A DNA stretch of 64,000 nt from Giardia intestinalis (taxonomy: Eukaryota): assembly GCA_000002435.2 (NCBI GenBank), contig CM018792.1. One strand, written 5' to 3'. The translations under genes and the position numbers were made by a program. Shown piece by piece: positions 1,522 through 3,776 of this stretch; within the stretch, counting starts at the first letter, position 1, and every line of letters starts with the position of its first letter. The notes beneath the pieces are model-generated. The model saw only the letters and a list, made by a program, of their open reading frames with translations. It was not told the origin of the DNA and made no database searches.

Positions 1522-1725
1522 AGCCATTACTCTGTCCCGATGAGCCGATCCCACCTCGCACCCGTCGCCCGTGCAGCGCCGTCCCTCCGGGCACACGACA
1601 GGGCGCCTCGTGTGCGACCAGGCCAGCGGGCTTCTCCCAGGGGCAGCCCTCGGAGTGGGAGTCTCAGAGAGGAGGCCGCCGGGGCACCCCCACCCGCTGC
1701 ACGCAATCCGGTCCACACCACAGCC

Positions 1726-1833
1726 TCTCTACTGATACCCCTGTTCGTGGTGAGCGCGCTTGCAGTAACCTACCAGACCGGCAAGTGCGAGACGGTCGGT
1801 AGCACAGAGATCTGCACCCAGTGCAGGGCCGGG
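1726..1833 (+). other. VSP signal-peptide / N-terminal segment (SLLIPLFVVSALAVTYQTGKCETVGSTEICTQCRAG) in frame +1, out of frame with the VSP body
   Basis: Hydrophobic leader plus the first CxxC motif typical of VSP N-termini. No ATG lies immediately upstream. The frame switches to that of 1821..3776 inside a G-run at ~1831-1834. Confidence 0.6.
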
Positions 1834-3776
1834 GCGTCCCGGTCGACGGCTTCTGCCGGCCCCCCGGCTCCATCCAGGCCGCGGCAGCCGGGTGCACCAA
1901 AGCGGGTGGGGCTGCCCTCGATAAGACGGCAACCACCTGCGGAAAGTGCGGCGATGGGTACTTCCTCTTCATGGGCGGGTGCTACAAGACAGAGAGTCAG
2001 CCCGGCAGCGAGATATGCACAACAGCCAGTAATGGACTGTGCACTGCTTGTAACACAGATAGTCAGTACATATTCCAGAACCCTGCTGCACCATCAGAGA
2101 AGGGTAGCGAGTGCATCTTGTGCTGGGATACTACAGATAGAAACGGGGTCATGAGAGTGGATAACTGTCTCAAGTGCACGGCACCTGGTGGCAATACAGG
2201 AGCTGCTAAGTGCACTGCCTGCACAGAGGGACACTTCCTACACACAGATGGGACGTGCCAGGCATGCGGCGCCGGTTGCTCCGAGTGCACGTCCAACACA
2301 GTGTGCACGCACTGCATACCTGGAAGGTACCTGAAAACTGGTGGCAGCTGTGTCGGTGATAACGGCTGTGACGCACAACACTATGCAGACCCGCAGAGCG
2401 GAGAGTGCAAGTCGTGCCCCACTGATACAGCGATACCGGAGTGCACCGCGTGTGCATACAATGATACCCTCAAGAAGCCCGTATGCAGCGAGTGCGACAG
2501 TGGACAAGCAAAGAATCTTCTCAAGAAGAAGGTCGACGGGACTGCGGAGTGCGTCGATGCTGCTGGGTGCGCAACTGTCGGACAGGACGGGACGCACTTT
2601 CGAAGTGACGGAGATACCAAGTGTATACTGTGCGGTGATAGCAGTGGGTCTGGCAACGACCAGGGCATAGCAGACTGCGAGATGTGTAGCAAGGAAGCCT
2701 CTCAGAAGCCGGTGTGTAAAGCATGCCTCCCTGGATTCTACTTGAGTAGCACTTGCAAGCCCTGTGCAGGAAACTGCGCAAAGTGTGGCTCAACAGGAAA
2801 CATACAGGACTGCACTGAATGCATGCCAGGGTACTTTCTAAAAACCGAGGGTGTAACAAAGGAGTGCGTCCCTTGTAGTGACACAGCCAAAGGTGGCATC
2901 GATGGATGCAGTGTCTGCTCGAATGATGGCAATACTTTCAAGTGCACTGACTGTAAGCCTAACTATAAGAAGCAGCCCAATGGAGGAGCAGGGGATGACT
3001 ATACGTGTGTGAAGGTGTGTGAAGACCCCACTGCCTGCGGGGGGACAGCTGGCTCTTGTGATGCAATAGTGATCGACAATGATGGAGTAGAGCATCACTA
3101 CTGTTCATACTGTGGGGAGAGTACTAAGGTACCAATTGATGGCATCTGTGCTACTGATAAGAAAGGTAATACTTGTAACAGTCATACATGTACACAGTGT
3201 GCTCAAGGGTACTTCTTATACATGAATGGCTGTTACAAGGTTGATACAGAACCAGGAAGCCTCATGTGCTCGAAAGCAACAACAGCTGGTGTCTGCACTA
3301 CTCCCAATGCCAACAATAGGTACTTCATAGTCCCAGAGGCAAAGGCTACTGATCAGTCTGTGTTGGCCTGTGGCAACCCCCTTGGCACACTAATAGGTAC
3401 TCAAGACAAAGCTAAGGCATACGTCGGGGTGGATGGCTGCTCCCAGTGTACAGCCCCGACACAGCTAGAGGCTCCTGGTATGACCTCCGCTGTGTGTACT
3501 GCCTGTGACAGTGGTAGGAAGCCCAACAAGGACGGCAGTGGGTGTGTGCTGTGCTCTGTGGGTGATTGTAAGAGCTGTGTGATGGATGATGTGTGTGGGG
3601 AGTGCAACAGTGGCTTCAGCCTAGACAGCAGTGGGGCCTCCTGCGTGTCCTCTGGCGCCAACAGGAGCGGGCTCTCCACGGGGGCCATCGCGGGGATCTC
3701 CGTCGCTGTCATCGTCGTCGTGGGGGGCCTCGTGGGCTTCCTCTGCTGGTGGTTCCTCTGCAGGGGGAAGGCATAA
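1821..3776 (+). CDS. variant-specific surface protein (VSP) body, 651 codons; 5' end disrupted (probable pseudogene, or a homopolymer frameshift error)
   Basis: Dozens of CxxC motifs, GGCY and 'CTxC' repeats, a C-terminal TM helix and the invariant Giardia VSP tail ...[13 protein letters not shown] immediately followed by stop. An AGTGAAT poly(A) signal lies 11 nt downstream. Confidence 0.85.
   Translation: [651 protein letters not shown]

Follow-up and report, generated by a model that had tools for sequence, protein, structure and literature searches.

A probable VSP pseudogene of Giardia intestinalis WB with a start-less leader, a one-base frameshift and a Cys-to-Tyr change

Genes for variant-specific surface proteins (VSPs) that lack an ATG have been described in Giardia as probable pseudogenes (Adam et al. 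2010, PMC2996952). VSP pseudogenes (pVSPs) whose signal peptide sits in a different frame are a described class (Rodríguez-Walker et al. 2022, 10.1101/2022.03.07.483299). The RefSeq annotation of Giardia lists 217 Cys-rich pseudogenes among 320 annotated pseudogenes, and about 89% of the 217 are pVSPs (10.1101/2022.03.07.483299). Here we describe one VSP locus, GL50803_0050218, in a 64,000-nt window (the whole stretch of DNA that was analysed) of the Giardia intestinalis WB chromosome NC_051859.1. Both the locus and its pseudogene class are already known, since the former is catalogued in Rodríguez-Walker et al. 2022 and ATG-less vsp genes were reported by Adam et al. 2010. With a probability of about 90%, we consider the locus a genuine, non-expressible VSP pseudogene with three lesions: an inherited start-less 5' end, the loss of one G, and a Cys-to-Tyr change.

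The ATG-less vsp genes of Adam et al. 2010, and likewise the downstream members of linear arrays in that study, share with the window copy a conserved 3' end and the lack of a start codon and initiator; they were read as pseudogenes or recombination cassettes. The three ATG-less genes are short (224-902 nt), whereas the window copy is solitary, lies outside any array, has full length and keeps its signal-peptide sequence. Among intact VSPs, the closest in the leader begin with MFQLIPLF: GL50803_00112113 (P0001) and GL50803_00114674 (P0010) of WB, and P0005 of the DH isolate. They resemble the window copy in the leader (LIPLFVASAL) and the N-terminal motifs. Their bodies are 58-61% identical to it overall, with the transmembrane domain, the CRGKA tail and the Pfam domain PF03302 in common. 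All three retain TAATGTTCCAA (the initiator with Met-Phe-Gln), five Gs and the Cys, and the window copy has lost each of these.

The catalogued locus and its VSP body

The published segment intergenic3063 matched the window exactly, which fixed the chromosome coordinate as 1,984,000 plus the window position. Nine long open reading frames (ORFs) of the window were identical to WB clone C6 proteins within the range KAE8304263 to KAE8304289 (2,761,001-bp contig). The ORF at 193-1521 is KAE8304263 and the DNA polymerase epsilon gene at 4204-11976 is KAE8304264. These accessions are consecutive, and the VSP between the two genes therefore has no annotated protein. The sequence from 1803 to 3776, opening with cacagagatctgcacccagtgcagggccggggcgtcc, is GL50803_0050218 itself. 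This gene, with the old locus tag GL50803_40630, is catalogued as a pVSP of 1974 nt on NC_051859.1, without an ORF and without an inner stop (Rodríguez-Walker et al. 2022). It is marked 'partial; pseudo' in the reference genome, and RefSeq retains 'pseudo'. A preliminary description of this DNA, made from its letters, had offered a VSP pseudogene of the silent repertoire as one reading, and the reference genome and the published catalogue agree with it. The locus has the properties of a type I pVSP (no proper ORF), namely VSP similarity with CRGKA, no ATG-initiated signal-peptide ORF and the annotation 'pseudo'. Intergenic3063 contains a GC-rich flank and the out-of-frame leader, and ends at the TAG that bounds the body frame; the authors flagged it as intergenic DNA resembling Cys-rich genes (10.1101/2022.03.07.483299). 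The gene and its leader appear in supplementary Tables S6, S7 and S10 of that preprint, which for this locus gives no explicit account of the lost G, of the change from Cys to Tyr or of the twin described below.

We compared the locus with the features of complete, expressible VSP genes given by Rodríguez-Walker et al. 2022 and Adam et al. 2010. The body frame opened at 1803, directly behind a TAG (1800-1802), and ran to the stop at 3774-3776 (657 codons). Its translation formed a multi-CXXC, Cys-rich ectodomain with 27 CXXC motifs and 11.4% Cys, and matched PF03302 (VSP) with E = 2.4e-39 and 135.8 bits against a cut-off of 31.4. The conserved transmembrane domain of about 25 aa, encoded at ~3684-3758 and preceded by the NRSGLSTG motif, agreed with the corresponding strings of WB VSPs. 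The CRGKA tail followed at 3759-3773, with the stop codon directly after it (3759-3776). An extended polyadenylation signal of the VSP type was present downstream (Table 1), and Table S6 of the catalogue gives such a signal for GL50803_0050218 with p = 8.9e-11 (10.1101/2022.03.07.483299). The VSP body is thus intact to 3776, as the preliminary description had it. The signal peptide was not in frame with this ectodomain; it lay in the frame of the ORF at 1540-2154.

The start-less 5' end and its relatives

Eight further copies were aligned with the window over their homologous 5' regions. From DH (assemblage A2) came the ortholog L007, a second locus, L008 (P0002), and the intact paralog L006 (P0005). 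An assembly in ENA provided L005 (P0008) and L009 (P0003), and the WB copies GL50803_0050032, intergenic3038 and intergenic3353 were taken from the published tables. The 5' ends of intact WB VSPs were those of Table S1 of 10.1101/2022.03.07.483299.

Between 1400 and 1990 the only ATGs were at 1480, 1540, 1954 and 1971, and none of them stood in a PyAATGTT initiator. The initiator was also absent from the whole of 1-4200. The leader accordingly has no ATG start, as first described from the sequence. PyAATGTT is found at the start of 135 of the 136 complete WB VSPs (10.1101/2022.03.07.483299), and it is reportedly needed for efficient expression from a VSP promoter (Adam et al. 2010, PMC2996952, citing unpublished data). 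Alignment located what is missing. The nine bases ATGTTCCAA, which in intact paralogs encode Met-Phe-Gln and carry the TAATGTT initiator, were absent between 1731 and 1732, while the sequences on both sides were kept. The intact paralog L006 reads CCCTCTA-ATGTTCCAA-CTGATACCCCTGTTC, and the segment after ATGTTCCAA opens with CTGATACCCC. Five intact WB VSPs, including GL50803_00112113 and GL50803_00114674, start with atgttccaactgatacccctgttc and have the initiator TAATGTT (5' comparison sequence atgttccaactgataccc). All eight start-less copies, in contrast, read …ACACCACAGCC(T/A)(C/T)TCTA-CTGATACCCCTGTTC, without ATGTTCCAA; the junction is also written CCT(C/T/A)T(C/T)CTA|CTGATACCCC. Taken from this alignment, with one intact upstream flank (L006) and five intact WB coding starts, the difference would be a nine-base deletion.

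The start-less state was common to the DH ortholog, to other loci of DH and the ENA assembly, and to four WB loci. Because it is shared with both ortholog and paralogs, it is an inherited trait of a sub-family and not an accident of one locus or one assembly. The suggestion that the locus is a recombination remnant needs qualifying accordingly: the 5' end is no breakpoint peculiar to this locus, since three genomes together hold at least eight copies with the start-less leader. The upstream in-frame Met noted earlier does exist in the GC-rich flank (1540), but lies 62 rather than 64 codons before the Ser of SLLIPLF. We rejected it as the true start. The 62 intervening codons consist of GC-rich flank without a Pfam match, and this stretch contains an in-frame stop in L008 and L009. 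Since both paralogs carry that stop upstream of the leader, the GC-rich frame does not conceal an N-terminal extension.

Upstream of the leader, the shared sequence was nested. Only 17 nt were common to L005, and about 250 nt to L009 and intergenic3038. In the window, L007, L008 and GL50803_0050032 the common stretch exceeded 1.6 kb and took in a multi-copy GC-rich ORF of 442 aa. The pattern agrees with repeated rounds of duplication or conversion whose tracts differed in length. The copy GL50803_0050032 (WB, NC_051860.1) has both the GC-rich upstream unit and the start-less leader (TTASLLIPLFVVSALAVTCQTGKC), and is 93.8% identical to the window copy over the leader region. It differs in having GGGGG and TGC, with leader and body in one frame of 2238 nt and no inner stop. 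It shows the state of the window copy prior to the G loss and the Cys-to-Tyr change.

Conservation around the missing start raises the question of an unconventional one. Start-less LLIPLF-leader genes might be expressed from a conserved CTG (1732-1734) or from an ATG exon spliced onto CACAG/CC (1723/1724), so that the window copy would belong to a functional class and have been frameshifted recently. The 17-nt sequence upstream of the leader (ACACCACAGCCTYTCTA) was kept in all eight copies, including L005, which has no further upstream similarity. The conserved upstream sequence ends in CACAG, resembling Giardia 3' splice sites, and in four copies (P0002, P0003, P0008 and GL50803_0050032) the frame runs unbroken between the leader and CRGKA. 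The consensus of Giardia introns is (G/C)TATGT at the 5' end and a fused branch-point and 3' splice motif CT(A/G)ACACACAG, allowing no more than one mismatch (PMC10711314). To the latter motif the segment CCACACCACAG (1713-1723) has four mismatches. GTATGT was absent from 1-1800 and CTRAC from 1500-1740; CTATGT was not searched for. The main text of a transcriptome-based survey of 42 introns from 2023 is silent on VSPs (PMC10711314). With the 5' and 3' consensus motifs both missing (CTATGT aside), we rejected the intron reading of the conserved CACAG. Nothing supports initiation at the CTG, and the PyAATGTT linked to expression, used at the ATG by nearly all complete WB VSPs, is missing.

At the nucleotide level, the genomes of assemblages A1 and A2 are only about 1% apart, and VSP genes are thought to exchange sequence, as the window locus itself suggests. 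The intact leader-to-CRGKA frames are for these reasons weak evidence for selection, and the window copy is frameshifted in any case. We regard expression from such a start as extremely unlikely, and return to the inherited start-less 5' end as the first lesion of a pseudogene.

The frameshift, the Cys-to-Tyr change and a second WB locus

The leader, …TTASLLIPLFVVSALAVTYQTGKCETVGSTEICTQCRAG, was identified as a signal peptide through homology. The GGGG at 1831-1834 is the sole G run where the leader and body frames meet. Insertion of one G joined them, and the product agreed with intact VSPs such as P0010. This confirms by translation the preliminary statement that the leader lies in another frame and is rejoined by one added G. 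It does not make the leader displaced, as had been stated; the leader is contiguous with the body and merely 1 nt out of frame. Six of the eight further copies had GGGGG at this position (L007, L005, L006, L009, GL50803_0050032 and intergenic3353), and L008 had GGAGG. Only the window and the WB locus intergenic3038 had GGGG. The same two copies had TAC (Tyr) at 1771-1773, a lesion absent from the preliminary description, and all others had TGC (Cys).

The intergenic3038 sequence, taken from Table S7 of 10.1101/2022.03.07.483299, lies outside the window at NC_051859.1:1,928,807-1,929,316, about 57 kb from the window leader. The leader region (1715-1858) was identical in the window and intergenic3038 at 144 of 144 positions, including GGGG and TAC, and here the window was 91% identical to its own DH ortholog. 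The relationship was reversed in the outer flank (1440-1565), where the window matched L007 at 96% and intergenic3038 at only 64%, and intergenic3038 matched L009 of the ENA assembly at 93%. An identical 144-nt leader between different outer flanks indicates that gene conversion or a short duplication carried the G loss and the Cys-to-Tyr change between loci. On the simplest reading of these alignments, both changes would have arisen once in the WB lineage and been copied between the two distinct loci on one tract.

The shared tract also bears on whether the frameshift is an artefact of the long-read reference, caused by a miscalled homopolymer. The site would then really read GGGGG, giving a continuous leader-body frame that still has no ATG. 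The lesion does sit in a homopolymer, the classic place for indel errors of long-read and 454 sequencing. The C run of L007, one base short (five Cs instead of six), may itself be an assembly error, the DH assembly being, we presume, of the 454 era. But intergenic3038, a second WB locus with another outer flank, has the same GGGG together with the TAC substitution, which is not in a homopolymer; a random sequencing error is unlikely for this reason. Seven neighbouring ORFs, covering 30,681 bases with 365 homopolymer runs of at least 4 (80 of them G or C runs), matched proteins of independent Logan short-read assemblies exactly. Assemblies of the runs SRR14213833, SRR22734123, SRR10662869 and SRR10368401 matched this region. 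The locus is also retained as 'pseudo' in RefSeq. Even five Gs would leave the gene without start codon or initiator, so that the pseudogene verdict would not change. A sequencing error, one of the alternatives first proposed, is accordingly disfavoured. We see a very slim residual chance of a reference error at this base, and this would not rescue the gene.

Several observations nonetheless weigh against the locus being a genuine, non-expressible pseudogene. No contig of an independent assembly was found over 1825-1840 of the WB locus in exact-protein and homology searches. The exact-protein look-ups across the frameshift used the ORFs at 1821-3776, 1971-3776 and 1540-2154, the antisense ORFs at 1664-1972 and 1729-1932 and hypothetical five-G versions, and none of these proteins was on record in independent assemblies. 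The Logan short-read contigs with the polymerase epsilon gene all ended at the conserved VSP 3' end, short of the G run. When the N-terminal 210 aa and the 204-aa out-of-frame ORF served as queries, homology searches recovered the DH ortholog (P0246) and no WB fragment. Both GGGG copies come from one WB assembly, and a systematic error, or a mis-assembly copying one locus, is possible. The nine-base deletion rests on the upstream flank of a single intact paralog (L006) and on the WB coding starts. Finally, a published RNA-seq table gives GL50803_0050218 a value that corresponds to a log count per million (logCPM) of ~5.8 if its columns follow the edgeR order (10.1101/2022.03.07.483299). If this is correct, the locus is not transcriptionally dead, and multi-mapping with the twin copy is likely. 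Such a moderate read count would be consistent with widespread low-level transcription in Giardia together with multi-mapping to the twin.

Taken together, we favour a pseudogene with three lesions. The sub-family 5' end without ATGTTCCAA, and thus without start codon and PyAATGTT, is inherited. The WB lineage lost one G of GGGGG, which shifts the signal peptide by one base relative to the body frame, and a conserved Cys codon became Tyr. The analysis shows these lesions, how they are distributed among the copies, and the annotation. Without initiator and ATG, no signal-peptide-bearing protein would be started, and the frameshift would disconnect the leader from the ectodomain. The copy is probably not translated; at most it may yield a low-level transcript or serve as a donor for recombination with expressed VSPs.

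Neighbouring features and the meaning of the locus

The features of the locus are collected in Table 1.

Table 1. Coordinates of the VSP locus and of the elements next to it.
Feature	Window position	Strand	Basis and remarks
Hypothetical 442-aa GC-rich ORF GL50803_00113952	193..1521	+	KAE8304263.1; multi-copy unit directly upstream of several start-less VSP leaders
GL50803_intergenic3063 (NC_051859.1:1985521-1985802)	1522..1802 (281 bases)	+	Exact match to published sequence
Conserved 17-nt 5' flank ACACCACAGCCTCTCTA	1715..1731	+	Alignments; common to all start-less copies
Signal-peptide and first-CXXC segment (SLLIPLFVVSALAVTYQTGKCETVGSTEICTQCRA)	1726..1832	+	Translation; homology to leaders of P0001, P0010, P0005, P0008 and P0246
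TAC (Tyr) where all relatives carry TGC (Cys; TCQ)	1771..1773	+	Alignment; WB-specific substitution
Annotated pseudogene GL50803_0050218, pVSP, 1974 nt	1803..3776	+	Sequence identical to Table S7 entry, 10.1101/2022.03.07.483299
GGGG run, 1-bp deletion relative to GGGGG (frameshift between leader and body)	1831..1834	+	Alignment of related copies
VSP-type extended polyadenylation signal TACTTAGGTAGTGAATGCTC	3778..3797	+	Sequence; AGTGAA at 3787-3792

The GC-rich ORF GL50803_00113952 belongs to a 90% cluster of 37 sequences. Four copies, including itself, were found on two WB chromosomes and one in DH (L007, 4582-5910). A Pfam scan of the protein gave no domain match. Wherever the downstream DNA was readable, this unit was followed by a start-less LLIPLF VSP leader; in L007 and L008, it is the end of the ORF that precedes the leader. 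We tried the GC-rich block as a part of the 8.3-kb inverted repeat described below and rejected this, as a BLAST search of 1-4200 against the window returned the self-match alone.

Some related copies had peculiarities of their own. In the DH ortholog L007 (AHGT01000095.1, ~6260-6275) the G run is GGGGG, but the C run that is six bases long in WB and the other copies (window 1857-1862) has only five. The result is a different frameshift; the ORF is annotated as 'DnaJ-type Zn finger domain protein, partial' (P0246), and the contig ends within the VSP. The five-C run may have arisen as a separate lesion, or that assembly may have a homopolymer error here. L008 (AHGT01000001.1) contains two tandem VSP ORFs, 2501-4612 and 4649-6463, separated by 36 nt. 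The start-less leader belongs to the first ORF, which is called 'partial' from a GTG. This tandem pair has the linear-array arrangement of Adam et al. 2010 (PMC2996952). L005 (ERZ28528424, 3878-4003), between kinesin and ankyrin genes, encodes P0008 (713 aa as called), an otherwise intact VSP with the start-less leader. Its first in-frame ATG lies inside the signal peptide (…LIPLFVASAL-MAACQ), and the 17 nt upstream are common with the window copy. The WB counterpart of L005 is 'intergenic3015' at NC_051859.1:1,883,534-1,884,312.

Farther downstream, the window contains an inverted repeat (12,339-20,626 and 37,542-45,829) with arms of 8.29 kb that are 99.95% identical and have a GC content of 65-70%. 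ORFs with good Pfam matches in the repeat encode an ankyrin protein of 749 aa, a WD40 protein of 570 aa and a CHY zinc finger protein of 398 aa. The arms flank a unique segment of 16.9 kb with about 45% GC, which carries the genes for Ankyrin repeat protein 3, Ankyrin repeat protein 1 and Sec31. Short-read contigs of these inner genes are ~17.0-17.2 kb long; assemblies therefore break at the inverted repeat. The geometry of the repeat could allow inversion of the inner segment.

Arrays of pVSPs in G. muris were proposed to act as a gene-conversion reservoir (summarised in 10.1101/2022.03.07.483299). A residual role of the window copy as a sequence reservoir or gene-conversion partner, as proposed for pVSPs generally, is plausible. 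The sole direct hint of such a role is the lesion tract common to two WB loci. The LLIPLF-leader sub-family, mostly found behind the repeated GC-rich unit, is present in assemblages A1 and A2 and in a third assembly. We think it improbable that this sub-family is maintained, as a gene-conversion donor set or through non-AUG or spliced expression, rather than just decaying. If it were, the transfer of the WB frameshift and the Cys-to-Tyr change over 57 kb would be a direct trace of conversion traffic.

The locus matters little beyond bookkeeping, and the picture of antigenic variation is unchanged by it. For specialists of the VSP repertoire it may be of modest use, in documenting a WB-specific loss of a single G, its sharing with a twin locus, probably by gene conversion, and a 9-bp sub-family deletion present in both A1 and A2.

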